A stretch of 59,554 nucleotides of DNA, the filler included, from Dugesia japonica (taxonomy: Eukaryota): the NCBI GenBank assembly GCA_001938525.1. It is 6 parts of 6 records of this genome, joined end to end, with 100 filler letters (N's around TTAATTAATTAA, not from the genome) between each part and the next. Parts side by side here need not be neighbours in the genome. Positions count along the whole stretch, not along the records: positions 19,207 to 32,345 come from MQRL01620587.1; 5 more parts are not named here. The stretch is one strand, 5' to 3'. Made by a program: the position numbers and the translations under genes. Within the stretch, counting starts at the first letter, position 1. Every line of letters starts with the position of its first letter. Below are positions 19,107-50,468 of the stretch, piece after piece. Below the pieces are notes generated by a model that was not told the DNA's origin, searched no databases, and saw only the letters and a program-made list of their open reading frames with translations.

Positions 19107-19206
19107 NNNNNNNNNNNNNNNNNNNNNNNNNNNNNNNNNNNNNNNNNNNNTTAATTAATTAANNNNNNNNNNNNNNNNNNNNNNNNNNNNNNNNNNNNNN
19201 NNNNNN
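19107..19206. other. Artificial contig-joining linker
   Basis: 44N-TTAATTAATTAA-44N. Confidence 0.97.
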
Positions 19207-19276
19207 GTTGTTTACACAATGAGGCGTGAACGGTGATTACGTCACTTCCGCGCGTGAAATTACCTAACCACCTACT
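19207..19276 (-). repeat. Putative Polinton terminus, family 2 (AGTAGGTGGTTAGGT...CGGAAGTGACG)
   Basis: Matches 1-54; its end faces into contig 3, so it belongs to a different, nested element. Confidence 0.55.
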
Positions 19277-19315
19277 AAAGATGGGTGTTATCATAGAAAA
19301 TCTAAACAATCAATA

Positions 19316-20162
19316 TTGGAATTTAAACCAAAGAAAGAAAAGAAGACAATAGAAGAAAAGCAAATAATAAAATCGAATGAAATAAAAAGTAAATTAATTG
19401 GTGCATTTAAAGATAAAATACAATATCCTAATCTTAATCCGAGTAACTATATAAATATATATAAAGAAGATAGAATAGAAAATATTAAAGGAGGAGCAAT
19501 GAAATATGATGTAAATGATGTAAATGATGATGATGTAAATGATGTAACAGAAATAATAAATGAGATAAATAGAGGAAATAATAATAAACCTAATTACAAA
19601 GAAGTCTTAGAAAATCTAAAAATAATATCAGCGAGAAAACAAAATGAAGTTGAAAAAATAATAGAAGAAGAAAGTGAAGATGAAACTAAAGTTCAAATTA
19701 GAGATAGTGTTTATGTTCATTCAAAAGTAGAAAAAATTTTCAATGAAAATATAGGTAAACCTCAATATAGATAAATCTTAAAAAGTTTCTTTAATAAATG
19801 GAGAAGGAAAAAGAAATAGATTTAGTTAAAAAAGATGAAATATTTCAATTGAAAGTAAAAAAAAAATAAATAAAATTGAGCAAGAAAAAACTGATGAAGA
19901 GAAAATTAAAATGTTTGGAGAAATATTTCATAGTTTATTTAATTTTAGAGAAGCATACAAGAGAGAAAGAAAAAAGAAGAAAGTAAATTATAATTTAGAA
20001 CAAGAATTTAAAATCAAGGAAGAAATTTATAAAACTAGACAAGATAATAAAATAAAAAGAAATAATAAAAAGTTGGAAAAAATGGGAGAGAATATAATAA
20101 CTAGTTTAACAAAGATTGTAAAGAAAGATGAAATATTTATAAATGGGATTACCAAATTATAA
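19316..20162 (+). CDS. Hypothetical K/E/N-rich viral protein(s), probably one frameshifted gene
   Basis: Two ORFs separated by A-run-rich coding-like sequence. Confidence 0.45.
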
Positions 20163-20171
20163 TTAAAAGAA

Positions 20172-20480
20172 ATGGATGGAGAAGAAATAACAAGTGATTT
20201 GAGTGATTTGAGTAATTCAAGTAATTCAAGTAATTCGAATATATTGTTGGGGATGAATGATAATATTGGGAAATTATTAAAAAGTGAAGAAAAAAATAAA
20301 TCCGTTTTATATAAAATAATAGTTAATCTAAAAGTTGAACTAAAATTTTACAAAACAATTATTATTATAGCAGTAGTACTAGTAATTTTTATTATTATTG
20401 CAATTATATTTTATTATTACAGAGTAGAGATAAAAACATGGTTGAAGGAAAAAATGAGTGAGCCTCAAGTGAGTGACTAG
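20172..20480 (+). CDS. Small single-pass membrane protein
   Basis: Hydrophobic TIIIIAVVLVIFIIIAIIFYYY segment. Confidence 0.65.
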   Translation: MDGEEITSDLSDLSNSSNSSNSNILLGMNDNIGKLLKSEEKNKSVLYKIIVNLKVELKFYKTIIIIAVVLVIFIIIAIIFYYYRVEIKTWLKEKMSEPQVSD

Positions 20481-20501
20481 ATCAAAACAATAAATAAATA
20501 A

Positions 20502-21779
20502 ATGGACTTGGATTTCAATATTAATTTTGTTCACAATCAAACTAAAGTGGATTTGTTGAAAATATCACCAACAGCTGGATCAATAGTAAATTTAAACAAG
20601 AATGGTNNNNNNNNNNNNNNNNNNNNNNNNNNNNNNNNNNNNNNNNNNNNNNNNNNNNNNNNNNNNNNNNNNNNNNNNNNNNNNNNNNNNNNNNNNNNNN
20701 NNNNNNNNNNNNNNNNNNNNNNNNNNNNNNNNNNNNNNNNNNNNNNNNNNNNNNNNNNNNNNNNNNNNNNNNNNGAATCTTTAACTTATCCAGATGTAGC
20801 TTCTACAATGATTAATTTAGTTTTGATAGATAAAGCTAATGAAAAATCACATCAAGCTTATGGATGGATTCCTGATTCAATAAAAGATAGTTCCAAGAAG
20901 AGACAAGAATTATATTTAAATAGTTATGAAGGTTATTATCCTCTAAGAAATTTGTTTGGATTTTTATCAAATTACAATAGATTATTATTTAATACTTTTA
21001 TTCAATTAGATTGTAATAGAGAGATAATTAATGAAAAGATATTCTTTGGAAGTACAGATGATAAAGTTGAAATTCAAATTGATGCTTTGGAATTACATAT
21101 TCCTGAATGGACTTTATCACCCAAGAATGAATTAGCTTATTTGGAAAGATTATCAACAGGAAAACCAATTCAATCTTTATTCTTGGAAAGAGAGATGGGT
21201 AATTCTTCAATGAATACAGGAACTAGTTTTTCAATCAAAATGGGAAATTTACCATATAGACCTAGATTTGTTATTGTAGGATTTAAATATTTTAATAATT
21301 CATACAAGAATAATAATAATTTATTTACATTAAAACAAACTGTAGTCAAGAAAGTAGGAACAGAAGATAAAACATTTAATTATTATTTAAAAAGTATTCA
21401 ATTACAATTAAATAATGTTTATTATCCAAACACTAGAGTGGAATTTGATGCGCTTAATAATCAAGTAATGTTTCCTTATCAAATGTATGTAGAAATGTGT
21501 AATTCATTTCCAGGTAACTGGCCCGTTAGAGCTCAATTAAGTATTAAAGATTGGACAAGTTTTTATCCAATATTCTGTTTTGATTGTTCTGCACAAGATG
21601 AAAAACTAACTGTAAATAATGTAGATTTAACATGTCACATAACTAAAGATAGTGAATTAAGTGGTAATTTGTATTGGTTAATACTATTAAAAAAGCATGT
21701 TGAATTAAAGATAAGTAATGGTAAAGTAATGTTTGTTGAGAATATTAAAGGAGAGGATGTTAAAAGAATCAAGCTGTAG
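20502..21779 (+). CDS. Major capsid protein (double jelly-roll, hexon-like)
   Basis: PLRNLFGF, RPRFVIVGF, LNNVYYP and YPIFCFDCS motifs of Polinton MCPs; size and context. Confidence 0.85.
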   Translation: MDLDFNINFVHNQTKVDLLKISPTAGSIVNLNKNGXXXXXXXXXXXXXXXXXXXXXXXXXXXXXXXXXXXXXXXXXXXXXXXXXXXXXXXXESLTYPDVASTMINLVLIDKANEKSHQAYGWIPDSIKDSSKKRQELYLNSYEGYYPLRNLFGFLSNYNRLLFNTFIQLDCNREIINEKIFFGSTDDKVEIQIDALELHIPEWTLSPKNELAYLERLSTGKPIQSLFLEREMGNSSMNTGTSFSIKMGNLPYRPRFVIVGFKYFNNSYKNNNNLFTLKQTVVKKVGTEDKTFNYYLKSIQLQLNNVYYPNTRVEFDALNNQVMFPYQMYVEMCNSFPGNWPVRAQLSIKDWTSFYPIFCFDCSAQDEKLTVNNVDLTCHITKDSELSGNLYWLILLKKHVELKISNGKVMFVENIKGEDVKRIKL

Positions 21780-21841
21780 AGCGATGTTAAAAGAATTAAG
21801 CTGTAGAGCGATGCTACAAAGCCAAATGATAATTAAATAAA

Positions 21842-23302
21842 ATGTCTAATGAAAAAGAATTGTGTTTATTATGTAATAGGTATTTATCAAAAAGTCATAG
21901 AGCAAGACATTTTAAATCATGTTCAAAAAAGTATTCGAAAGAAGAGTATCCAGAAAAGTATGGCAGTGATCTTCAAAATAGTAAAATAACAAGTACTTTA
22001 TTAAAACCTTTTACTACAGAGAAATATCCAGGAGAAAGACATTTATTTAAACATAATTATACTGGACCAGGAACAAGACTGGATATTCGATTGGAAGAGG
22101 ATCCTGATGGTAATCTTGTTCCAAAACCAGGTGAAGAACCAGTAAATAGAGTTGATCAAGCTGCATTAAAACATGATATTAGTTATAATTCAGAAGATAT
22201 TAGAGATAGACATTTAGCTGATGTTAATCTAATACATGATTTAAATAGTATAGAAAAACCAACAATGTCTGAAAAAATTCAAAGAGGATTAGTTAAATTA
22301 GCAATGAAAGGAAAGATTATCCTGGGTTCAGGACTGGGTTCGGGACTTAAAGCTAAAGCTAAAGCTAAAGCTAAACCAAAGACTCCAGCTGAAATACTGA
22401 CTGATGAACTACATAAACCTTTTAATAAAAATAAAAAACATTTTCTTAAAGTTAAATTATTCTTTAAAGATGAAACTTGGTCAGCTGATTTAATGTTTTT
22501 AGGTCCATCCAAAGGTTTTAAGGTTGGAAGCCAGTTATCTAGAACTGGGCAATTAGTTCCAGTTTTAATAGTTATTGATTTATATACTAGATTTATATTT
22601 ATTGAAGTTTTGGAAAATAAAACTGGTCAAGAAGTAACAGATGGATTAGAAAGTATAATTGAAAAAATTAATCGAATTCCTAATAATTTATGGGTTGATC
22701 ATGGAAACGAATTTTATAATAAAAAGTTTCAAGAGTTTTGTGATGAAAATAATATTAATTTATATTCTTCTTCATTAAATACAGAACTTCAAGGTAAAGC
22801 AGTTTTTGTTGAACGAGTAATTAGAACATTTAAAAGAAGATTATACAAAATTTTTACTAAACAGGGTAATCAAAAGTGGAATATTGATTTATTAAATTCA
22901 ATAGCTGATGATTATAATAATACAGTTCACAGTTCAATTGGAATTACTCCAAAACTTGCTAGTTATTCTTCAGATTTAAAGTTAGAATCAAAGCTTTCAA
23001 AGAAAACAGTTAAATGGAATCTTGCTAATAAAGATTATCCAAACCCAAAGAAATTCCAAATAGGAGATCGAGTTAGAATCTTTAGAATTAAAGACACGTT
23101 TGAAAAAGGTTATACAGCAAATTGGTCTAAAGATATTTATACAATTTATAAAATTAATAGAGAAAATAATACATCTCAATCATTTGATGGAGTATTAACT
23201 TATAATTTAATCCAATCAACTGGAGATAGAGATGAAGATCCAGATAACTGGAAGATATTAGGTAGATATTATGCTAATGAGTTACAAAAGACTAGCTTTT
23301 AA
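21842..23302 (+). CDS. Fusion protein: N-terminal Zn finger + parvovirus-type PLA2 + rve (DDE) integrase
   Basis: CLLC..H..C; YTGPG and AALKHDISY...AD; WSADL, LWVDHGNEF, VERVIRTFK, YNNTVHSSIG and FEKGYTANWS. Confidence 0.92.
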   Translation: MSNEKELCLLCNRYLSKSHRARHFKSCSKKYSKEEYPEKYGSDLQNSKITSTLLKPFTTEKYPGERHLFKHNYTGPGTRLDIRLEEDPDGNLVPKPGEEPVNRVDQAALKHDISYNSEDIRDRHLADVNLIHDLNSIEKPTMSEKIQRGLVKLAMKGKIILGSGLGSGLKAKAKAKAKPKTPAEILTDELHKPFNKNKKHFLKVKLFFKDETWSADLMFLGPSKGFKVGSQLSRTGQLVPVLIVIDLYTRFIFIEVLENKTGQEVTDGLESIIEKINRIPNNLWVDHGNEFYNKKFQEFCDENNINLYSSSLNTELQGKAVFVERVIRTFKRRLYKIFTKQGNQKWNIDLLNSIADDYNNTVHSSIGITPKLASYSSDLKLESKLSKKTVKWNLANKDYPNPKKFQIGDRVRIFRIKDTFEKGYTANWSKDIYTIYKINRENNTSQSFDGVLTYNLIQSTGDRDEDPDNWKILGRYYANELQKTSF

Positions 23303-23350
23303 CTGGCAAGCTAACTGGAAATCTATAAATTTTAAATTAAAATAATAATA

Positions 23351-23587
23351 ATGATGGGTAATCAACAAGATAAAGATAAAGATAAAGATCAAGCAGTTGA
23401 TGATGAAAAGAATAAGAAACCAGATGGATTATGGAACTATCCAACTAGTTGGTTAACTACTGATACTTCAACTTACATGACTAAAGAGGAAGAATTAAAA
23501 GAAATTCAAGATATTAATACTTTTAACCAGGTTATGTTAACAAACATGGTGTTTACAAATTTAATTACTTCATCTATTTGGAAATAA
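23351..23587 (+). CDS. Small hypothetical viral protein (possible N-myristoylation, MGN)
   Basis: ORF filling the gap between integrase and ATPase. Confidence 0.55.
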   Translation: MMGNQQDKDKDKDQAVDDEKNKKPDGLWNYPTSWLTTDTSTYMTKEEELKEIQDINTFNQVMLTNMVFTNLITSSIWK

Positions 23588-23634
23588 TTTTTATAACCCG
23601 AGCGAAGTGAGGGTTCAAATAGTTTTATAATAAA

Positions 23635-24427
23635 ATGGCAACTCCTATTGTAAATCCAATTTGGAAAAATTCATCAAGTAAATTTAAACATGAAACATTT
23701 CCACCTCAATTTAGATGTTTAATTATTGGTTCGTCTGGATGTGGTAAAAATGTTTTACTATTAAAGATTTNNNNNNNNNNNNNNNNNNNNNNNNNNNNNN
23801 NNNNNNNNNNNNNNNNNNNNNNNNNNNNNNNNNNNNNNNNNNNNNNNNNNNCATGGATTTAATCAAGGTTTAAGTAAACAGGATTTAATTAATATTTTTT
23901 CAGATGAAATACAAAATAGAATTCCCAAAGATTTAAATCCTCAAGAAATAATCTTTTGGTATTCCAGTTCAGGACTGGCCAGTAAAGTTAATCAGGAAAC
24001 TGAAGAAGGAATCCAGGAAACTGGAATCCAGATTACAATATCAACTAAAGCATCTGAAATTGTACCATGTGACAAGTTACCTGCTAATAAAAAGAATTTA
24101 ATAATTTTTGATGATGTTGTAAATGAAAAGAATCAATCAATACAGAAATCTTACTTTACTAGAGGAAGACATAATAATTGCAATGTAATTTACATATCAC
24201 AAACTTATTATGATTTGGATAAAAATTCAATAAGAAATAATAGTAATTGTTTTATTTTCTTTAAACTAGGTAAAAGAGATAAAGATAATGTTTATCATGA
24301 TTTATTTAGTAACATTTTTAATACTAAAGAAGAATATGACTTTGAAACTAATTACCATTGGAAAACTAAATATAATTATTTTTATCTAGACAAGGAAAAG
24401 GAAATTTTGTCAGATGATCTATTCTAA
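23635..24427 (+). CDS. A32/FtsK-like genome-packaging ATPase (spans an N gap)
   Basis: Walker A IIGSSGCGKN, Walker B LIIFDD, FTRGRH, YISQ and IRNN. Confidence 0.9.
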
Positions 24428-24497
24428 ATATCTTAAAGCTAAAATAAAGTAATAATAAATAGTTTATAGAAACCTCACTCACTACGCTCGCTCGGTT

Positions 24498-25100
24498 ATG
24501 ACAAACAGTAATACAACTGAAAAAGAATTGTTAGATTTAATAAATAGTGACAAAAGTAAATCAATAAGAATTAATGGTAAAAACTATTGGATTGGAAAAA
24601 GAAGTAAAGATTTATTAAAACAAAGATTAGAAAAAGAAGGAGGAATATTTCCATTATTAGCTTTAATACCTGGTATTTTAGCTGGAATTGGAGCTGCAGG
24701 AGGTGCAGCCGCTAGCATTGCAAAGGTTGTTTCCAATTCAAGAGAAGCTAGTAATAAAGTTAAAGAATCTATTGAACTTGATAAAAAGAATAAACTATTA
24801 GATGAACAGATCAACCAGTTCCAGACTGGACAAGCTAGTAAAGCTAGCCAACTAGTTGGAACTGCAGAGAATAAATTACCTCAATCTGGCCAGTCAACTG
24901 GAACAGTCCAGTCGGGGACTGGAATTTATTTAAATCCTTATCAAGGTTCAGCTATTCATAAATATTTAAAACCTTACTTAAGTAATACAAAAGTAATAAA
25001 TAAAAAGAAATTTAAAAAGGGAATAGAAATTATACCTAGTGGTAAAGGATTATATTTAAATCCGTATTCGCATGAAGAACATAACCCAAATAAAACTTGA
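24498..25100 (+). CDS. Putative virion core / membrane-active protein (pX-like)
   Basis: EGG followed by hydrophobic IFPLLALIPGILAGIGAAGGAAAS; two GxG(I/L)YLNPY repeats. Confidence 0.65.
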   Translation: MTNSNTTEKELLDLINSDKSKSIRINGKNYWIGKRSKDLLKQRLEKEGGIFPLLALIPGILAGIGAAGGAAASIAKVVSNSREASNKVKESIELDKKNKLLDEQINQFQTGQASKASQLVGTAENKLPQSGQSTGTVQSGTGIYLNPYQGSAIHKYLKPYLSNTKVINKKKFKKGIEIIPSGKGLYLNPYSHEEHNPNKT

Positions 25101-26044
25101 ATAAAATGAATGATTGGATTGAAGATAGAATAAAAAGTTTAAAGGATCAAATTAAAGCAAGGGAGAAATATGACAAGTTTATAGTTGAACAAGTTTCATT
25201 TTCTAACCAGTTTTCAAATCAGTTAACTGGAACTTGCCAGTTCAGTAGTCAGTTGACTAAAGAACCTGTTATTAAAGAACCTGCTCCAACTAGTTGGACT
25301 AAAGAACCTGTTAAAGAACCTGTTAAAGAACCTGTTAAAGAACCTGTTCCAACTAGTTGGATTAAAGAAGAAGAACCTGTTCAGGAAGAAAGAACAACAA
25401 GTGATAGATTTAGAATAAGAAAAGAACAATTTCCAATTTGTAAAAAGTATGATTTACCTCCTACTTTAATTCCTTATGTTGTTTATGATGATGATGAAGC
25501 TTTTGATTCTTTTAAAATTGGTTCAGATATTATTTATTTAAAACAAATAAAGATGAATGATTCAATAGATAAATATTTTCAAATAAATGATTTAAAACAA
25601 ATACCATTTAATAAAGAAGTATTAAATTTAATGTTTGGTTATGGATCTAATGATGATGAAGCTAAAAGAATTTATTTAAATAGTTTTAATTTTTCTATTC
25701 CTCATTCAAGTAAATATATTAGAGCATGTAAGAATAAGGGAAATTTTGATGAAGAATTTAAAAAATTAAAAAATCCTCCTCCATATAAAGAGATTGATAC
25801 TGTAAAGGATTCTGTCCAGTTAACTGGAAAGGATTCTATCAAGGCTATTGGAGATGGATTAATTAACAACCAACTAGTTGGAAATCCAATAAAGTTGTTG
25901 GAAAAGTTTGTAATAATTACTAGTGCAATAAAAGCTGGCCATGATAACATGTCAGATGACTTTAATAAAATAATTAATCAGATGATGGATGATAAATTAA
26001 TAACAAAAGCCAAATATGATAGACTAAAGAAAAAGTATTTGTAA
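25097..26044 (+). CDS. Conserved Polinton protein with KEPV repeats and C-terminal KAGH motif
   Basis: Intact ORF; homolog on contig 1. Confidence 0.7.
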   Translation: MNKMNDWIEDRIKSLKDQIKAREKYDKFIVEQVSFSNQFSNQLTGTCQFSSQLTKEPVIKEPAPTSWTKEPVKEPVKEPVKEPVPTSWIKEEEPVQEERTTSDRFRIRKEQFPICKKYDLPPTLIPYVVYDDDEAFDSFKIGSDIIYLKQIKMNDSIDKYFQINDLKQIPFNKEVLNLMFGYGSNDDEAKRIYLNSFNFSIPHSSKYIRACKNKGNFDEEFKKLKNPPPYKEIDTVKDSVQLTGKDSIKAIGDGLINNQLVGNPIKLLEKFVIITSAIKAGHDNMSDDFNKIINQMMDDKLITKAKYDRLKKKYL

Positions 26045-26124
26045 TCTCAATATCTTAAAGCTAAATTAATATATATAAAATAGAAACCTCACTCACTACG
26101 TTCGCTCGGTTAACTCACTCGCTT

Positions 26125-26838
26125 ATGTCTCATCAATTTTTAATATATGGTCAAGAACATGAATTAGAAACTAAATTATCAAATGGTTTAAATTTACAAG
26201 GTGAATGGGAAATGGCTTTAATCTGGTTCACTACATCTAACATGATTTTAAATATAAATAATAAAAATAATAAATACAAGATCAATGGTAAAGAAAAAGA
26301 ACTAACTCCAGGTGCATATGAAATTAAACAAATTGCTGAACGGTTGACTGTCGACTTCATTCAATTGACATTTGATGTATCAACAGGTAAAGCTTTTATC
26401 CAACTTTATAGTGATAGAGATAAGAAAAATCAATCGTCAGAAGTAAAGCTTGAATTTGATAATACTTCTTTTTTTCATACTATATTAGGATATAATGTTT
26501 TACCCAGTGGTTATCTATTAACTGGCCAGTTAAATGGACAATTTATTTCAGATAATAAAATTAATATTATTGACATGAGTACAATCAATATTGTTTGTAA
26601 TATTGTTCAAGGTAATTATTTAAATAATAAAGAATACAATTTATTACATAGTTTGCCAATGGGGACAGTTCCTTGTGGATATAGGATAACTGACAGGCCA
26701 GCTAATCCAATTTATTCAAAACTTAATACAGATTTTATATCTAGAATAAAATTAAATATAGTAGATGAGAATTTAAATACAATAGACTTTGATGGAGAAA
26801 AGATTAATATTTTATTACATTTGAGACAAGCCAGGTAA
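26125..26838 (+). CDS. Penton / minor capsid protein (single jelly-roll)
   Basis: GEWEMAL, PGAYEI, INIVCNIV and IDFDGEKINILLHLR. Confidence 0.85.
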   Translation: MSHQFLIYGQEHELETKLSNGLNLQGEWEMALIWFTTSNMILNINNKNNKYKINGKEKELTPGAYEIKQIAERLTVDFIQLTFDVSTGKAFIQLYSDRDKKNQSSEVKLEFDNTSFFHTILGYNVLPSGYLLTGQLNGQFISDNKINIIDMSTINIVCNIVQGNYLNNKEYNLLHSLPMGTVPCGYRITDRPANPIYSKLNTDFISRIKLNIVDENLNTIDFDGEKINILLHLRQAR

Positions 26839-26874
26839 CCAGTTAACTGGCTGGCCAGATAATTATAATAAGAA

Positions 26875-27399
26875 ATGACTACTAATCCAACTAGTTATTC
26901 AATAGTAGACTTTCTTAAAACATTTGGCATATCATCTACAACTAATTTTAATTTATTAGATATTGCTAAATTATTAAATTTAAATGTTTATGTAGTAATG
27001 AAGAATGAAATGGAAGAATATATAAATTCAAACCAACCAGCCCAGTTAACTGGAAGTTGTCCAAGTTCTTGGATAATCAACTATCAAAATTCAAATCAAA
27101 AAGGAACTCATTGGGTTGCCTATGTTAACTGTACAGCTGGCCGGTCAAATAATTCTTTAAATGGTTATTATTTTGATTCTTATGGACTAGCTCCATTAGA
27201 TTGTATAATTAATATTCCAAACTGTAAATTAAAATGGAATAAAATACAAGTTCAACCTTGGAAAACTAAAATATGTGGTATATTATGTATTTACTTTATT
27301 TATAAAATGCATAATGGAATTCCAAGTTCCAGTCAACTGGGTTCAAATTTTGATTCTATAATTAAAGAACTAAAATCTACCTTTAAAGAATGGCTTTAA
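26875..27399 (+). CDS. Adenain-like cysteine maturation protease
   Basis: GTHWV (His), YFDSYG (Asp), QVQ (Gln) and ICG (Cys). Confidence 0.92.
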   Translation: MTTNPTSYSIVDFLKTFGISSTTNFNLLDIAKLLNLNVYVVMKNEMEEYINSNQPAQLTGSCPSSWIINYQNSNQKGTHWVAYVNCTAGRSNNSLNGYYFDSYGLAPLDCIINIPNCKLKWNKIQVQPWKTKICGILCIYFIYKMHNGIPSSSQLGSNFDSIIKELKSTFKEWL

Positions 27400-27429
27400 A
27401 TAAGCTAGCTTTAAATTCTATATAAAGAA

Positions 27430-28671
27430 ATGACTCATTCTTTTTCAAATGTAATAATGAATAGATTTGGAGAAACATTGGAGAATAAAAATACTAATCA
27501 ATTACTAGAAGCATTTGATGGTAAAGTAGAAAGTAAAATTAATTTAAAATTAAAGATTCATCAACATGAAGAACAGCTTTTAAATAAAAAGTATGATGAT
27601 AGAGAATATATTGATAAACAAATTGGACAGTTGACCGGTCAGTTGACAAGACAACAAGTTACTATTGTCAAACAACAAGTTACTATAGACACTTTATTGG
27701 AAACTAACAAAATACAATTGAGTGATAGGAAAAAAGAATTTATTAATCTAAAGAGTGAAATGTTAGTTCAACTTGAAAGTTTTAAACAAATTAAAAATTT
27801 TTATAAAGATGAAATGAATAACCAACTAGATCTACAATTAGTTAAATTAAAAAGGGTAATAGTTAAACAAGTTGAAGAATTAAAAAAAGAAGTTAGAGAA
27901 TTAACAAGTAAATGTAGTCAAGATAAATGCAAGAATGTGAAAGAAAAATTTAATAAAGTAAAATATGATGTAGATTATTTGAATCAAACACAAAATGATC
28001 CTTTACCTGGATTGGAAAAAACTTTTTTATCTTTAGTATTCATTTATATTAATGATAGAGAATATCTTGTCAAGATTTTAAATGATTTAAAAAAACAAAG
28101 AGAACAAAAGAAACTTTATTCTCCTAATTTACTTAAAGAGTTAAAAGATGGAATTGAAAATTATTTTCCATATTTCTTAGATCCATCCATTAATATAAAA
28201 AGATTTTATTATCTATTATTATTTCATTTATCAATAGATAAAGTTATTGATGATCTACCAAGTGTTTTATTCTTTAAAATGAAAAAATTAAAAGCATATA
28301 GAAAAGGAATATATATTAAAAAACCAAGAGGAGAATCTTATTATCAACTAGAAGAAGATATGATATTAAATTTTGAATTATTAAAAGAAATAGAAAGATT
28401 ACATTTTCAATTTACATTTGCTTGTGATAAAGGTTTTTATGATCCTGAAGCAAGTATTTCTTTAATTAATGAAATTTTAATAATAAATGAATCTATTCCA
28501 GTAGTTTTTAAAAACTTTGCTTATAAAACAAAACTAATAGGTCAAACATCAAATATATTTCGAATAGAAAGTTTAGAAATAGATAGGGGAAAAACAAAAT
28601 GGTTAAAATTTTCAATAACCATTAGTAATCGTACTTGGTTTAAAGATTTAAAAATATTCAAGTCAAAATGA
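27430..28671 (+). CDS. Hypothetical coiled-coil viral protein
   Basis: 413-aa intact ORF in the viral gene array. Confidence 0.7.
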   Translation: MTHSFSNVIMNRFGETLENKNTNQLLEAFDGKVESKINLKLKIHQHEEQLLNKKYDDREYIDKQIGQLTGQLTRQQVTIVKQQVTIDTLLETNKIQLSDRKKEFINLKSEMLVQLESFKQIKNFYKDEMNNQLDLQLVKLKRVIVKQVEELKKEVRELTSKCSQDKCKNVKEKFNKVKYDVDYLNQTQNDPLPGLEKTFLSLVFIYINDREYLVKILNDLKKQREQKKLYSPNLLKELKDGIENYFPYFLDPSINIKRFYYLLLFHLSIDKVIDDLPSVLFFKMKKLKAYRKGIYIKKPRGESYYQLEEDMILNFELLKEIERLHFQFTFACDKGFYDPEASISLINEILIINESIPVVFKNFAYKTKLIGQTSNIFRIESLEIDRGKTKWLKFSITISNRTWFKDLKIFKSK

Positions 28672-28696
28672 TTAGACTCAAATTATTTAATAAAAA

Positions 28697-29494
28697 ATGG
28701 AAGCTAACAAGTTATCATCTAACAAGTTATCATCTATTAAAATATACCCAGATTTAAACAATGATTTAAACAATGATTTAAACAATGAAGAAGAGGACAA
28801 CCGACAATCAACTGGAAATTCAACTAGTATGACCATTCAAGATTTAAAAAATAAATTAAATCAAACAAGAATTAAAGATTTTGAAAATGATCTAGAGTGG
28901 ATAGAAGATAAACTAAAACATTATAGAAAATTAAAAAGAAGATGGTCAAAATTTGATAGTGGAGTTAGATTTACAGATGTAGGAATTTCCACGTTTGTAG
29001 GTTTAGCTTCAGGAACAATAATATTAATGTCTAGTTTATCTTTTGGAATACCTTTATTAGTAACTGGAATAGTTACTGGAATCCCAATTATTTATTCTAT
29101 TGCACATGGATCTTTAAGAGTTAGTTTAATAAAAAGTAGAATAGTTAAATATACAGTAAAAATTAAATTATTAGAAGAAACTAAAAATAAATTATTCCTC
29201 TTTCATACTAAAGCTTTGGAGGATAATAAATTAAGTAATGAAGAAATTAAAATTAGTAAAGATATAATTAATAAACTTAAAGACCAACTTGTTGGACAAC
29301 TGTCCAGTGATCAATCAACTAAACAATCAACTGTTCAGCCGACTAGTGGTCAGTCAACTGTTCAGACAACTGTCCAGTCAACTGGACAACTAGTTAGTGA
29401 ATTGGAACATTTTAGTAAATCATTTCCAATATTAATGCAGCAGATATCTAGTCAGCTAACTGGACCCAGTAATATAAAAAAAAATAAACAATAA
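28697..29494 (+). CDS. Two-TM coiled-coil membrane protein
   Basis: Hydrophobic hairpin VGISTFVGLASG...IPIIYSIA; KALEDNKLSNEE. Confidence 0.7.
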   Translation: MEANKLSSNKLSSIKIYPDLNNDLNNDLNNEEEDNRQSTGNSTSMTIQDLKNKLNQTRIKDFENDLEWIEDKLKHYRKLKRRWSKFDSGVRFTDVGISTFVGLASGTIILMSSLSFGIPLLVTGIVTGIPIIYSIAHGSLRVSLIKSRIVKYTVKIKLLEETKNKLFLFHTKALEDNKLSNEEIKISKDIINKLKDQLVGQLSSDQSTKQSTVQPTSGQSTVQTTVQSTGQLVSELEHFSKSFPILMQQISSQLTGPSNIKKNKQ

Positions 29495-29526
29495 AAAATA
29501 ACATCACTAAATTATTTACTTTTAAA

Positions 29527-32107
29527 ATGGCAACTAGTAATGATATTGGAAATGATATTGGAAATGCTATTGGAAATGCTATTGAAAGATATTGTGAAAT
29601 CTGTAATCAACATTTCAGAAGTAATTATCATTTAGAAACTCATTTAAAAGGAAAAGCTCATTTAAAAAAAGTTGAATTAAATAATCTTGGTAATTCATGG
29701 AGAAGATGTCACATATGTAATTTAAACTTTGATAATATTGTAAATTATAATAGACACTTGCAAGGAAAAAGACATCAAGATAAAGTAGTTCAAATAGCAT
29801 TAGAAGCAGAATCAAGTGGATCTGAAATTGAAACTATTTCCTCTTCTGATTCGGAACCAACTACTTCAACTAGTTTGAATCTTAAAGAATTATTTAAAGA
29901 TTTTATTTTACCAAGAGGTGAATATGAAGTAGAAACTTGTCAACAATCAATGATTAAATTGAAGAAATATTTCAGTATTTATAAAAATGAAAAACAACCT
30001 GCTGTTGAAAATATTTATCAATTTAATCACAGAATTAATTTTAATCTTTTAAAAGATTATTCTAATGAAATGAAAGACATGACTAATCTATTTATTATTA
30101 ATTTTCAAAAAGTAGTAGTATCAATAACTTGTTCAACTACTTATACAAAAGATTTTGTTGGACAAGATAGTACAAAGAATCAACAGTGGATTAAAGATTA
30201 TGATACTCATTCAGAGAAAATTACAATGTTTAGTCAAATTAATGATGTAATTGATAAAATGTTGGATCAATTATCTGAGGATATTTTCACTACAGAGACT
30301 CAAGGATCAGGTTGGTCATTTGAAAAGTTTAATTCTTTTAGAATTGAACTATCAAATTATGAATCTTTAGTAGGTCAGGGCTATTGTTTATTACCCAGTT
30401 TATTGAGAAATATTCCTGGAATTCTAAATATAAAGAATCCAGAAAATGATTACAATTGTTTTAAATATTGTATAATGGCTCATCTTGATCCTACTTTGGG
30501 AGATTCNNNNNNNNNNNNNNNNNNNNNNNNNNNNNNNNNNNNNNNNNNNNNNNNNNNNNNNNNNCTCAATTGGTTAGGAATTAAAATGCCAATGGAGATA
30601 ATAAATATATCAAAATTTGAAAGATTAAATGATTTCCAAGTTAATATCTTTGTGATAATTCCATCCAAAGACAAACCTAAAATACAAAAACTTTATTCTT
30701 CTCACCTAGAAACTAATCCTTCTCATAAAGATAGGAAATGTAATTTGTTATTATTTAATTCTCACTACATTTTAATTAGAAATCTAAACAAAATTAATAC
30801 AAAATCTAAACACACTAATGAATTGTGTATTAATTGTATGAACTGGAAAAGAAGTAAAGAATCATTAATCAAACATCAATTACTCTGCTTAAAACAGAAA
30901 GAAGCAGAGATTAAGTTTAGCTTTGATCCTATTTACAAGTTTAACAAGTTTTATATGAAAAACAAGAATCCTTTCACTATTTATTTTGATATAGAAACTT
31001 ATAAGGATTCCAATAATAACGAATTAATACCATTTGCTTTAGGTTTATATCTAGTTAGTAATCATCCTGAAGTTAAAAAATATATACAATTATTTCACTG
31101 GACCTGATTGTATTAGTAAATTCATTAAATGGTTATTAAAATTTAATGACTTGTTTGAAAGAATAATCAAAACAAGAAATGAATCTATTGAACTTGATCA
31201 AAAGAATCTAGAGCTAGCTTCCAATGAAAAGTGTTATTATTGTAATTCTTCACCTTCTGAGTCACTTGGTTACACTAACTGTGAATTTCTTTCAGTAAAT
31301 CCATGGACAGGAGAATCTAGAGGCTTTGCTCATCGTGAATGCATCAAGAAATTTGAGAATTCTAAAAAGTATTTCATACCAGTTTATGCACATAATGCAT
31401 CCAAATTTGATAATCACTTTGTTTTTAAGGAATTGTGTGAATCTAATCCTGAAAAAATTAATAATCTAATTCCATTAAATGATGATGTTTATATCTCATT
31501 TTCTATAGAAAGATTAAGATTTCTAGATTCTTTAAGAATGTGTAGTGGACATTCTGTAGAAAAGATGGGACAGGATTTATTAAAAAGTAAAAACCATCCT
31601 CATTTAACTAGTTTTAATCTAAAACCAGCAAAAGGAATCTATCCTTATGATTATGTAAGTGGAAAAGATTATCAAGAAGTTAAAGATAAATTAATAAATT
31701 TCTATACTCATATTGATGATTTTTACAATGTATTACGACAAACTAAACTATCTGAATCTGATTTTGAAATATTTAAAAAAGAATATTCAAATTTTAAAGA
31801 TCTACTTGATTATACACTACATTATATGCAACTTGATGTAATAATCCTAGCAGACTTTTTTGAAAACTTTAGGTCTTTATCACTAGAAAGGAATCAAATT
31901 GATCCAACTTATTGCTATAGTGCTCCAGGATTAACATGGGAAATAGGAATGAAAATTTCAAAAGTAGAATTAATAAATGCTAATCCTCGAAACTTTGACA
32001 TGTTTCTAACTATAGAACAAGGAATAAGAGGAGGATTTTCAGGAGTTTGTGGAAATCGACATGTTGTAGCTGATGAATTTCATACAATAAAGTGTCTTGA
32101 TGAGAAT
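29527..32107 (+). CDS. Protein-primed family B DNA polymerase with N-terminal Zn fingers; one frameshift, truncated at motif A
   Basis: GSGW, CFKYCI, YFDIET (Exo I), AHNASKFD (Exo II), RFLDS, KGIYPY, YMQLDV (Exo III), IRGG and LDEN. Confidence 0.92.
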
Positions 32108-32345
32108 AGATGAGTCATATGAGATTGGATGGATGGTTTGTCCTACAACTATGGTAGCGCACTGTCACAGTCGTATGAGTTATCGTGGGNNNNTTTTTAG
32201 GAAGGCTGTAGGTTTGTATGGGTTTGTTGGAATTTATTGGTTGATAGTTTGTTGGAGAGGTAATGTGATTCAGAAGATTTTGTATGTCGAATGTGCTTTG
32301 AATTTTTATTTTATGACCTTTAATTTGATTGGTTAATATTTGTAA

Positions 32346-32445
32346 NNNNNNNNNNNNNNNNNNNNNNNNNNNNNNNNNNNNNNNNNNNNTTAATTAATTA
32401 ANNNNNNNNNNNNNNNNNNNNNNNNNNNNNNNNNNNNNNNNNNNN
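32346..32445. other. Artificial contig-joining linker
   Basis: 44N-TTAATTAATTAA-44N. Confidence 0.97.
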
Positions 32446-42054: not shown

Positions 42055-42154
42055 NNNNNNNNNNNNNNNNNNNNNNNNNNNNNNNNNNNNNNNNNNNNTT
42101 AATTAATTAANNNNNNNNNNNNNNNNNNNNNNNNNNNNNNNNNNNNNNNNNNNN
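42055..42154. other. Artificial contig-joining linker
   Basis: 44N-TTAATTAATTAA-44N. Confidence 0.97.
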
Positions 42155-46239: not shown

Positions 46240-48109
46240 TTAGTAAATATCAATCATAGATTAGTTCTTCCTTTGTAAAATTACCATTTGGAAAACAAGG
46301 TGTAATTAATAATTATATATAATAATATATAAAAAATACATAATATATATAATAATATATAATATTATATATATAAATATATGTTTGATCAACCAACTCG
46401 TGTTTCAAATTATGTCCCTCATTTATCAGAATTAAAAACAAATGAATTGAAATTTCCTGGAAGTATTGATGATGTTAAATTATTTGAGAAAATGAATGAT
46501 TTTAAAAAGAAAATATTTGAAGTAAGTAATAAAGCTAAAATCTATCATGTTTATATTTCTCATTATAAAAGTAATCCTAAACCAGAGGAAAATAAATGTA
46601 ATTTATTATTTCACAAAGGTCATAATATTTTGTGTAGAAATAATTGGTGTATTTGCGATTACTAATAGAAATAAAAATGAATTATGTTTATGTTCTATGA
46701 ATTCATATAGAAGTACAAATTTATTAATGAATAATCAAAAAGGATTTGTTTTACACGAATCATCTAATTTTATATTTGAAAGTGATAAATATTTTTAATT
46801 TACAAATAATCATTTTACAACATGAATTTATAATTTTTAATGATTTTGAAAGCTGGACTAACATCAACACTAAAAAACAAAAATCATTATTTCTTGGTAT
46901 TTGTTTAGTAAGTAAATATCTAGATTTAATGAATATAAAGTATTTTATGGTGAAAATGTAATTAATCAATTCTTAAATTCTTTTTTAATCAATAAATTAA
47001 ATAAAATAAAAGAAAATAAATTAATTAAAATATATACTGAAACAAAACATCCTAACTTTACACAAGAAACTAAATGTAAAAATTGTAATGAAATGATAAT
47101 CTCAGATCTTGTAATAGACCATGATCATTTTAATGAGGAATTTAGAAGTTATGTTAATAATAATTGTAATCAATAAAACATTTATTTATACCATTTTATT
47201 TTCATAATGCATCTGGATATGATAACCATTTATTTTTCAGAGAATTATTAGAAAAATATCCAACATAAGTTTTTATTTATTATCACAATTTTTGATTTAA
47301 GTAAAAAAGATGAAGAATAATCCATAGTATTTAAAACAAATAATCTGAGAAATTTAATTTTCATTTTTAAATTCTTAAAATAAAATATTTTAAAAATTTT
47401 GATTTTATTTTAAAAATTTATACGTTACATAAATGATGATTTGTTGGAAGAATATGTAAAAACGTTGAAAGAATTTGAAGGTTTTCAGGCTCGTTTACGT
47501 ATGGCATTTGAGAAAAAGAAAAATGTTATCAAATACTTTCAAAATTTACATTAAATAACACTTCTTGCCATACTGTTATGGGGAAGTTTTATGGTATATT
47601 ACATATGTCTAACATGCAACATATGTTCATATTCACACATAATTTTACAAAATACATACACATTTAACAGAATTTAACAAGGAAAAATTATTTACTAAAC
47701 TAATTAATATTTATGTTCCTTCTTGGAATAAAATAAAATTAGAAACTAAAATAATAGATATAAGTGATAATGAAACAGTAATTAAGGTCGAGGTATTTGA
47801 TACTCCAGCTGTTGATCCGGTTGTTGATCCGATTGTTGATCTGAGTGTTCATTCAGTTAATGATCCGACTGTTGCTCTATTTTGTAATTCTGAGAATTTT
47901 GATGACAAAATAGGAAGTTTGTTAAAATAGGTTATTGATGAATGATACTTTCGATAAAGAAATAAATGACGAAGACCAGGTTTTGAATATGTATTTAGAA
48001 GATGAAACTCAAATTAGAAACTCCTATTCTTGATTGACCAGTTGTTGAAACTCATTTGCATAAATTCTATCGAATACTAAACAAAAATGTTTCTAATTAT
48101 AATTTGAAA

Positions 48110-49305
48110 GAAATTGTGGAGACCGTCTTTAATCGTCAAAGTATTCAAGTCAATCGCTTTCCCAAATTTCGCTTCAATATTTCAAATTTAATTTTCAATT
48201 GTTTCATCCGTTTGTCATGGATCTTTCGCATAAGCTGGTATCCAAAAATATTCTGCATATCTATTCCTCCTATCAGATCTGGTGTCACTCTTTCAGCAAC
48301 TAAGAAAATAATCTCTTTGCAAACTTCATCAATTATCACTCCAGTTCTAACTTTCCCAACAATTTCAAGTGCACTATTATTTGTAAAACGCAATCTTTCA
48401 TCATATTATCTAAATGTAGTTCTCGTCATTTATTTATAAACAGCTTGAACTCAACATTAATTCTAGCCCCTGTATCTAATATACATTCAACTTAATTTCC
48501 TTGAACTGATACCTTAACACTTGGCTGCCTTGCAATTTATGGTATGAAATATTTGTTTTCTGTTTTGCTTTAATTGCTTCAATCCATTTGGCTTTTCTAT
48601 CATCCACAAAATTTTTGTTCTTTAAAAACCTGTATACTTTTTCAATAACCCTCCCGATATTATCCCATTTTTCGACCCCTTGAGAAAAATCACCCACTTC
48701 ATTTAACAATGGTTGGCTCCAACAAACTCCTCTACTAGTAGAGCCCTGCTTTTTAAGTACTGCCTTTCGGTATCACTTTCATTTACTTCTTCATATCCAT
48801 CATTTTTGTTGACATCTGCATCTTCAATCGCATCTACTCGATTATACCGGTTTCTTTATTTTTCTTCAGTCATAAATTTCTCACTTGTTCTTTTCATTTA
48901 TAAATTTATGTAGCACTCTTCTGCCTTAATTCCACCATAACCACGTGGTTTAAACCTCACTTCTTGACATAACCTTCTAATATGACCAACCTTTCCACGA
49001 GCAAATCATTTTGTTTGTTATTATTTGGACAATCTCGACTTATATGTCCAGTTTTATGACAAGTCCAACAATCTACCACTTTTTTATCGGACAACTTGCT
49101 TTAGTATGACCGATATTTTGACATGACCAACATTCGATATTTTGTTTTTCTTTTTTTTGATTCACATGTCTATTCATTGTATAATTTGCACATTTCTGAC
49201 AATTTTGACTTGTAACTCTTGTGTAACTTCTAACTGCATAAACTTTATATCTGTTTTTTTCTACTTTATCTACTAACGTTATTGTTTCTTAAATTTTTTC
49301 TATAT
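48110..49305 (-). mobile_element. Ty3/gypsy gag-protease fragment, same family as 1934-3060
   Basis: CCHC knuckles, CILDTGARINV and VTPDLIGGIDMQ. Confidence 0.85.
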
Positions 49306-49779
49306 TTAGTTGTTTCCACAAAATTTTGGGTATTTGAAATAATAGATATATTTGAAACCAGCGAAACATTCTCTATCGAGTAGACACTTTATTGATTTAT
49401 TTTGAGAAGAAATAATTTTTTCTAAAAATTCTGTATAAATACTGGGAAGATCTAAAATGATCGCCGTAAAATTCCGAGTAGAATAATGTAAAATTGAAAA
49501 ATTATTTTTTAATTTTTTGGATATCTCGAATTCACATAAAATATTCAAATAAAAAAATTGAAAATTTTCATTTTATTTAAATAACATAAATTTTTCAATC
49601 GGATTTTCACAAAAAATTTATATTATCTTTTAAAAAATTTAAAATTCAAACAAATTCGACTTTTACCATGAATTTCCTTAAAATTTAATCCAAAATGACC
49701 AGCCGGAGGAAATTATCACATAAATTCAGCTAAAACTGATCTTTGCTTTTATATAATAAATATAATATAATAAATAATT

Positions 49780-50368: not shown

Positions 50369-50468
50369 NNNNNNNNNNNNNNNNNNNNNNNNNNNNNNNN
50401 NNNNNNNNNNNNTTAATTAATTAANNNNNNNNNNNNNNNNNNNNNNNNNNNNNNNNNNNNNNNNNNNN
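50369..50468. other. Artificial contig-joining linker
   Basis: 44N-TTAATTAATTAA-44N. Confidence 0.97.

Follow-up and report, generated by a model that had tools for sequence, protein, structure and literature searches.

A zinc finger–phospholipase A2–integrase fusion protein in a decayed Polinton of Dugesia japonica, and its possible role as a virion-cargo precursor

The window, by which we mean the whole 59,554-nucleotide stretch of Dugesia japonica DNA that was analysed, contains one open frame of 486 aa at 21842–23302, free of stop codons and of N, in which a zinc finger, a parvovirus-type phospholipase A2 (PLA2) and an rve integrase follow one another, as a preliminary description of the sequence had stated. 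Comparison of homologous sequences indicates that this fusion architecture is real, conserved and widespread, and it is apparently undescribed in a known virus group. The layout is common to many relatives, which suggests, by analogy with retroviruses, that the integrase is carried inside the virus particle; we estimate the probability at roughly 0.55 that the protein is a cargo precursor which would bring the integrase into the particle and be cut there by the maturation protease.

The relevant contig occupies positions 19207–32345, and the remainder of the window consists of other contigs joined by spacers (44 N, TTAATTAATTAA, 44 N) at 8391–8490, 19107–19206, 32346–32445, 42055–42154 and 50369–50468, the flanks of which are not true neighbours. 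The genes of the element lie on one strand in the following order:

20502–21779, + strand: major capsid protein, double jelly-roll (PF21738, E 4.9e-18)
21842–23302, + strand: zinc finger–PLA2–integrase fusion, 486 aa (translation, Pfam, homologues, model)
23635–24394, + strand: packaging ATPase with a run of N inside (Walker A GSSGCGK; tblastn matches to the ATPases of related loci L005 and L007)
24498–25100, + strand: stand-alone pX-like core protein without PLA2 (KEGG↓IFPLL, the arrow here and below marking a cut; two GxGxYLNPY; match to the adenovirus pX profile 9lr9_E, E 3e-4)
26125–26838, + strand: probable penton (minor capsid protein), no Pfam match, homologues in related elements
26875–27399, + strand: cysteine protease of adenain type, in which His (HW), Asp (FDSYG), Gln and Cys (QVQ..ICG) are present
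29527–32113, + strand: protein-primed PolB, broken (frame change near 31100, breaking off near 32110)

The element is a decayed Polinton/adintovirus. It carries the characters of Polinton/Maverick elements (Polintoviricetes), namely a DDE rve integrase, a protein-primed PolB whose C-terminal piece matches PF03175 (E 1e-7), a double jelly-roll capsid protein, a packaging ATPase and a cysteine protease, the last with its catalytic residues present and a PF00770 match below the cut-off (E 0.0015). The PolB gene is broken and the copy is therefore decayed, though the fusion and the protease are intact. The open frame at 26125–26838 is taken by us to be the penton from a motif and from synteny. The start of PolB (29527–29780) bears two zf-met type C2H2 fingers, of a type like the finger on the relatives of the fusion protein, and a NIKN..CF motif in PolB resembles vOTU. 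The right end of the element is lost from the contig, with no long inverted pair among the 25 longest listed; the contig start at 19207–19260 carries TTACGTCACTTCCG, which resembles promoter motifs of viral terminal repeats, and this start may be the left end of the element. A sister copy of the fusion was not found in the window, where other contigs hold degraded fragments of penton, protease and PolB from further Polinton copies (6213–7185, − strand; 46447–47247, + strand; 3321–3690, − strand). Elsewhere in the window, a reverse transcriptase fragment and a 1.1-kb repeat of 76% identity (681–1325 on the − strand, 1902–2990 and 48164–49306) are probably retroelement remains.

Within the fusion protein, the following parts were distinguished:

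21863–21922, + strand: zinc finger at the N-terminus (C8/C11/H23/C27), a variant form of the CxxC..H..H finger seen in close homologues
21962–21976, + strand: GS↓DLQ, a degenerate GG↓DxQ motif at the PLA2 start, candidate second cleavage site
22025–22324, + strand: parvovirus-type PLA2 (Ca loop YTGPG at 22058–22072, HD at 22172–22177, D127 at 22220–22222)
22313–22333, + strand: K-x-x-hydrophobic-G-x-G motif (KIILGSG), candidate protease site
22322–22375, + strand: tandem duplications of 12 nt and 6 nt peculiar to this copy (GSGL repeat at 22322–22347, KA run at 22348–22375), absent from the aligned homologues displayed
22397–23299, + strand: rve integrase (D216 at 22487–22489, D286 at 22697–22699, E324 at 22811–22813) with a beta-rich C-terminal domain

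The earlier placement of the Ca loop, the HD pair and the IILGSGLGSGL stretch (22316–22348) is correct, and the catalytic residues then claimed are present and conserved in both enzymes. PF08398 covers residues 67–148 (E 7e-8) and PF00665 covers residues 211–308 (E 1.5e-11), both above the curated cut-offs; the YxGxG Ca loop, the HD pair and the downstream Tyr and Asp of parvovirus-type PLA2 are all found, and D127 of the PLA2 together with D216 and D286 of the D-D-E triad is invariant in the 43 aligned proteins, while H111, D112 and E324 are kept in 42 of them. An AlphaFold model of the whole protein, built on these 43 sequences (mean pLDDT 79.5, pTM 0.52), places in order a small hairpin–helix finger, a helical PLA2 whose last helix (142–162) is closed by G162, a low-confidence linker (163–174) and the integrase. 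In structure searches with this model, the integrase fold resembles retroviral integrases with Z up to 19.8, and the PLA2 part matches only the plant PLA2 fold (Z 7.6) and bee PLA2 (Z 5.7); its match to an AAV capsid is weak (E 0.15) and its single-sequence fold (pLDDT 46) is useless, so that the PLA2 fold is assigned from Pfam and the middling Z scores of the whole-protein model. The integrase has no N-terminal helical domain and no chromodomain (no Chromo match in Pfam), while a chromodomain is present in other fused relatives; the protein ends in ELQKTSF, and most members of its clade end likewise.

The claimed zinc finger stands as regards C8, C11, H23 and C27 and a modelled hairpin plus helix (pLDDT 71–86), though the window copy gives no zinc-finger match in Pfam; the homologues P0007 and P0008 give weak zf-U1 matches, and a CxxC..H..H finger occupies the same place in 12 homologues. 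Our guess is that the finger binds nucleic acid. Elsewhere, a DUF5679 (PF18930) zinc ribbon precedes the PLA2 in place of the C2H2 finger (L001:8640–8762, L003 and L007; P0041, P0045 and P0121), and at L010:1167–1610 such a ribbon heads a separate small protein ending in GSGLYL, just upstream of the integrase.

The fusion could be an artefact or an accident, such as a stop codon lost in a dead copy or a mis-assembly, and the decay of the host copy and the draft, joined-contig nature of the window speak for it. However, both Pfam domains occur in 46 of 100 homologue matches at 31–50% BLASTP identity, the frame contains no N, and three ESM Atlas clusters (184, 111 and 72 members; feature scores 0.82–0.84, taken as a lead only) consist mostly of proteins with both domains; assembly artefact is refuted by these independent fused homologues, and we regard this explanation as a whole as scarcely credible. 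A profile made from the query and 42 of the 46 fused matches, four partial ones being omitted, recovered further, more distant fusions. The named matches are gene models of Lottia gigantea, several of which continue from the PLA2 by way of KLGMG as far as the first integrase residues. A tblastn search against phage records gave no match, and the 50 BFVD matches listed were to integrases only, none of them named as a PLA2 fusion. In one protein, P0180, the order is reversed, the integrase leading and a GDG motif being followed by a C-terminal PLA2.

In a FastTree phylogeny of 211 integrase domains, the query is placed in a 44-row clade (support 99), 42 of its rows fused, and the two non-fused rows start inside the integrase domain. 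Fused forms are found elsewhere in the tree too, including integrases with the N-terminal helical domain (P0113, P0121), and the PLA2-linked state requires 17 changes on the 211-row tree. A single origin of the fusion was rejected (AU p 1.2e-8) on 38 rows that were chosen after the larger tree had been seen. Some rows labelled "unfused" may owe that label to truncation of the gene call, which makes gains and losses indistinguishable. Integrase-only calls that start with MGIKKN..W or MLAEELHK (P0070, P0078, P0081 and P0049–P0058) may have been cut short, the genes behind them being fused or frameshifted. The nearest PLA2 relatives that lack the fusion, three in number (P0253–P0255), stop within 1–5 residues of the glycine, and the fusion is therefore not fixed even in near kin. 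Such a pattern would fit gene compaction without packaging, in which neighbouring PLA2 and integrase genes join and come apart time and again, their expression alone is coupled and the integrase acts in the producing cell; PLA2-linked integrases do not form one clade, near PLA2 relatives are unfused, and stand-alone integrases with their own ATG are common. Against it, the repeated Gly-motif fusion to two different virion-type proteins and a conserved −1 signal, both described below, suggest selection for a product that is made joined and in a fixed proportion, and we consider compaction of this kind unlikely.

The junction between PLA2 and integrase bears on the cargo-precursor reading. Adenain substrates follow the consensus (M/L/I)xGx↓G or (M/L/I)xGG↓x (10.1101/341131 and PMC7998265, in the portions covered), and ILGS↓G (residues 160–164) fits it, as had been pointed out, being the sole strict match in the fusion protein. 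As evidence for the family this match fails, since the strict consensus is kept in just 6 of the 43 alignment rows and in 9 of the 85 fused proteins that were surveyed after removal of 31 Lottia gene models. The conserved part of the linker, judged from the alignment, is K-x-x-hydrophobic-G followed by GG or GxG, rather than the adenain consensus: K158 and G162 are invariant in all 43 rows, 40 of which have GG or GxG, and among the 85 fusions 70 have GG or GxG at the junction, 11 a single Gly and 4 no motif, set against a background of 19 of 737 glycines in the integrase parts of fusions. At P4, K or R is found in 51 of the 81 motif-bearing fusions. An apparent either/or relation between GG and GxG (Fisher p 1e-5 on raw counts) vanishes with kinship correction (median p 1) and was rejected. 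The run given as (KA)5 is really (KA)4K, and the (KA)n run and the GSGL repeat were rejected as functional features of the linker, being short tandem duplications of this copy absent from the aligned homologues displayed; many similar in-frame duplications are scattered across the open frames of the element at 19207–32345 (41 tandem-array rows).

The same motif, KxxxGxG, also closes the PLA2 of a canonical PLA2X protein (L014), and 34 of 52 PLA2 proteins that carry no integrase also show GG or GxG; the glycine motif is thus no proof of cleavage, and G162, which closes the last PLA2 helix in the model, may be structural. An uncleaved fusion, packaged and working as one chain with the motif as helix cap and flexible hinge, would agree with the end of helix 142–162 at G162 and the low confidence of residues 163–174, with the occurrence of the motif in the absence of an integrase, with linkers of just 6 residues to ELHK in some proteins, and with the rarity of the strict adenain match. 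It is opposed by the second Gly, which a helix cap leaves unexplained (GG or GxG in 70 of the 81 with a motif), by protease–integrase fusions that keep the motif with no PLA2 helix to cap, and by the GG motif that also flanks the other end of the PLA2 (GG↓D; of the scorable proteins, 26 of the 44 with the fusion and 30 of the 35 lacking it carry this motif); we therefore think it improbable that the fusion simply remains whole. Between the motif and ELHK lie anywhere from 6 to 223 aa, with a spacing of 6–16 residues in 37 of 68 fusions, and stand-alone integrases begin 3–17 residues before ELHK in 60 of 73 cases; this resemblance is also compatible with a simple end-to-start gene fusion. Furthermore, in 36 of 68 fusions a Met falls within the 12 residues preceding the motif, as one does in the window copy (M155), so that an internal start is possible. 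On the side of the precursor, the window copy has no Met between residues 155 and 218.

Five in-frame protease–integrase fusions were seen (P0061, P0115, P0130, P0157 and L004, the last at L004:9503–10909), and in all five GG or GxG lies just upstream of the integrase; the motif is therefore kept without PLA2. These adenain-like protease–integrase fusions fall in two groups on the tree. PLA2X is a PLA2 with a C-terminal pX (Starrett et al. 2021, PMC8502044, in the portions covered), whereas in the window pX is a separate open frame (24498–25100). The two homologues found of the window pX protein also lack PLA2; of the related loci in which PLA2 lies beside integrase and the context is long, L001, L002 and L007 have pX as a gene of its own, and no pX was flagged in L012. 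The window pX has KEGG↓ at the position of LRGG↓ in adenovirus pX, with K at P4 as in the K/R-bearing linkers; acceptance of Lys at P4 by the protease of the element, which these sequences suggest may occur, would explain the loss of the strict consensus.

Among 15 related loci (L001–L015), 7 contain both PLA2 and integrase. The contigs concerned are apparently eukaryotic and are filed in bacterial and archaeal genome bins, which suggests contamination of those bins. In L012 the two domains are fused in frame. In L001, L002 and L003, where the gene follows the major capsid gene as it does in the window, the integrase lies in the −1 frame behind the PLA2, with no ATG before its first catalytic Asp, and a phased A_AAA_AAC stands two codons past FGLG, followed by 5 nt and a 12-bp stem. 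The elements of a programmed −1 frameshift (a phased X XXY YYZ heptamer, a spacer of 5–9 nt, a stable stem and a startless downstream frame) are thus all present, and the signals that would join the zinc ribbon–PLA2 frame to the integrase are as follows:

L001:9150–9215: −1 frameshift signal
L002:8805–8870: −1 frameshift signal
L003:2077–2142: −1 frameshift signal

The stems at these junctions have z scores of −3.95 and −2.86. Between L001 and L003 the DNA is 68% identical, with the heptamer invariant and all 12 pairs kept (one double change, two single changes); a shuffle control for covariation (245/500) is uninformative, there being just 2 distinct sequences. Elsewhere in L001, 17 of 2719 codons carry a phased heptamer, and the one at the junction has the strongest downstream fold of the 18 (−17.4 versus −7.9 or weaker); in L003 the corresponding fold is −21.9 versus −7.5 or weaker among 5. 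L005 (−1 frame, A-run heptamer, no significant stem), L007 (an A run, with the integrase shifted to the +1 frame there) and L013 (G_GGA_AAC heptamer, no significant stem, a frame change upstream in this copy) are ambiguous and may simply be broken copies. At the junction of the window itself no frameshift signal was found; it is a plain in-frame fusion.

The polyprotein proposed in the preliminary description is thus retained in part. The conserved fusion, the glycine motif whatever the upstream partner and the −1 form in relatives speak for it and give the broader polyprotein idea more support than the sequence alone could offer. The specific cleavage argument is weakened: the strict consensus is seldom kept (9/85), the motif is inherited from the end of the PLA2 in ordinary PLA2X and in stand-alone PLA2, and the fusion, far from being a peculiarity of this copy, is common in sequence collections. 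Three features of the sequences support a polyprotein, namely the separate pX, the Gly-joined protease–integrase fusions and the −1 frameshift loci. In the mechanism that we propose, an ancestral PLA2X gene would have split, leaving pX alone and joining PLA2 to the integrase, so that the integrase would arise as the C-terminal portion of a virion-cargo precursor of the form finger–GG↓–PLA2–GxG↓–integrase. This precursor would be made alongside the capsid genes and enter the particle by way of its PLA2 part, the maturation protease of the element would cut it at the glycine motif, and the cut would free the PLA2 for membrane escape and an integrase starting approximately where stand-alone integrases start. 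More broadly, several Polinton lineages may have converged on the strategy of retroviral Gag-Pol, placing the integrase behind a virion cargo (PLA2 or maturation protease), in frame or by programmed −1 frameshifting, packaging it and releasing it at GG or GxG; this wider proposal is tentative, and we give it somewhat less than an even chance.

If this is true, an incoming particle could integrate its DNA before any viral gene expression, and a DNA-virus parallel to retroviral Gag-Pol would exist. With the integrase tied to a presumed virion entry enzyme, a defined candidate site of cleavage between the two and, in relatives, a frameshift signal of 50 nt, two parts of the question how the integrase reaches incoming DNA become open to tests on isolated proteins and in reporters. 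For many Polinton integrases that databases list as "stand-alone", the start may have been called wrongly in a gene that is fused or frameshifted. The virion of Maverick-Polintons has never been seen (10.64898/2026.06.19.733378, in the portion covered). A PLA2–integrase fusion or a frameshift into integrase was not found in the covered portions of the literature (among them PMC3671162, PMC5803895, PMC11296320, PMC11131425, PMC11161782, 10.64898/2026.10.13.758929, 10.1101/2025.02.07.637071 and 10.1101/2023.08.22.554363), a scope beyond which Repbase, subscription papers and preprint supplements could note the fusion.

Among known systems, the adintovirus PLA2X (PMC8502044, in the portions covered) is similar in that a parvovirus-type PLA2 resides in an element that also encodes hexon, adenain, ATPase, PolB and rve integrase, and in the KxxxGxG end of its PLA2 noted for L014, but differs in having pX at the C-terminus, a place taken in the window by the integrase. 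The covered text portions of PMC8502044 make no mention of a PLA2–integrase fusion, with 0 occurrences of "fused" or "fusion". Adintoviruses are described as having an integrase with a C-terminal chromodomain and a PolB bearing an OTU-like domain at its N-terminus, together with a hexon that reciprocal BLAST links to the reference viruses (Starrett 2021; Buck 2024, in the portions covered); that chromodomain is absent from the window integrase. It has been proposed by Buck et al. 2024 (PMC11071296) that frameshifting makes fusion isoforms of the adintovirus penton and of hexon–adenain, and section 16 of that paper, in the part covered, concerns these two only, not PLA2–integrase. With adenoviruses, the window shares a protease resembling C5 and a pX whose GG↓ occupies the homologous place, among the adenain precursors pX, pVI and pVII (PMC7998265, in the portions covered), whereas P4 in the window family is mostly Lys rather than M/L/I and adenoviruses are without an integrase. 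The role of PLA2 as a virion entry protein in adintoviruses is itself a proposal drawn from parvovirus biology (PMC8502044, in the portions covered). The PLA2 of the parvovirus VP1 unique region has the Ca loop, HD, downstream Asp and PF08398 in common with that of the window, but is joined to a capsid protein, while the window PLA2 is joined to an integrase. In retroviral Gag-Pol, the integrase is the tail of a precursor made by −1 frameshifting at a slippery heptamer with a stem. The window protein and its relatives resemble it in having a retroviral-type integrase as the tail of a putative precursor, in frame or, in relatives, in the −1 frame, with presumed release by a protease; they differ in that the window element is a dsDNA element with a jelly-roll capsid and no reverse transcriptase, and in that the carrier is PLA2 or a protease, not Gag. 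The parallel with Gag-Pol is one of analogy, not of homology in the strategy.
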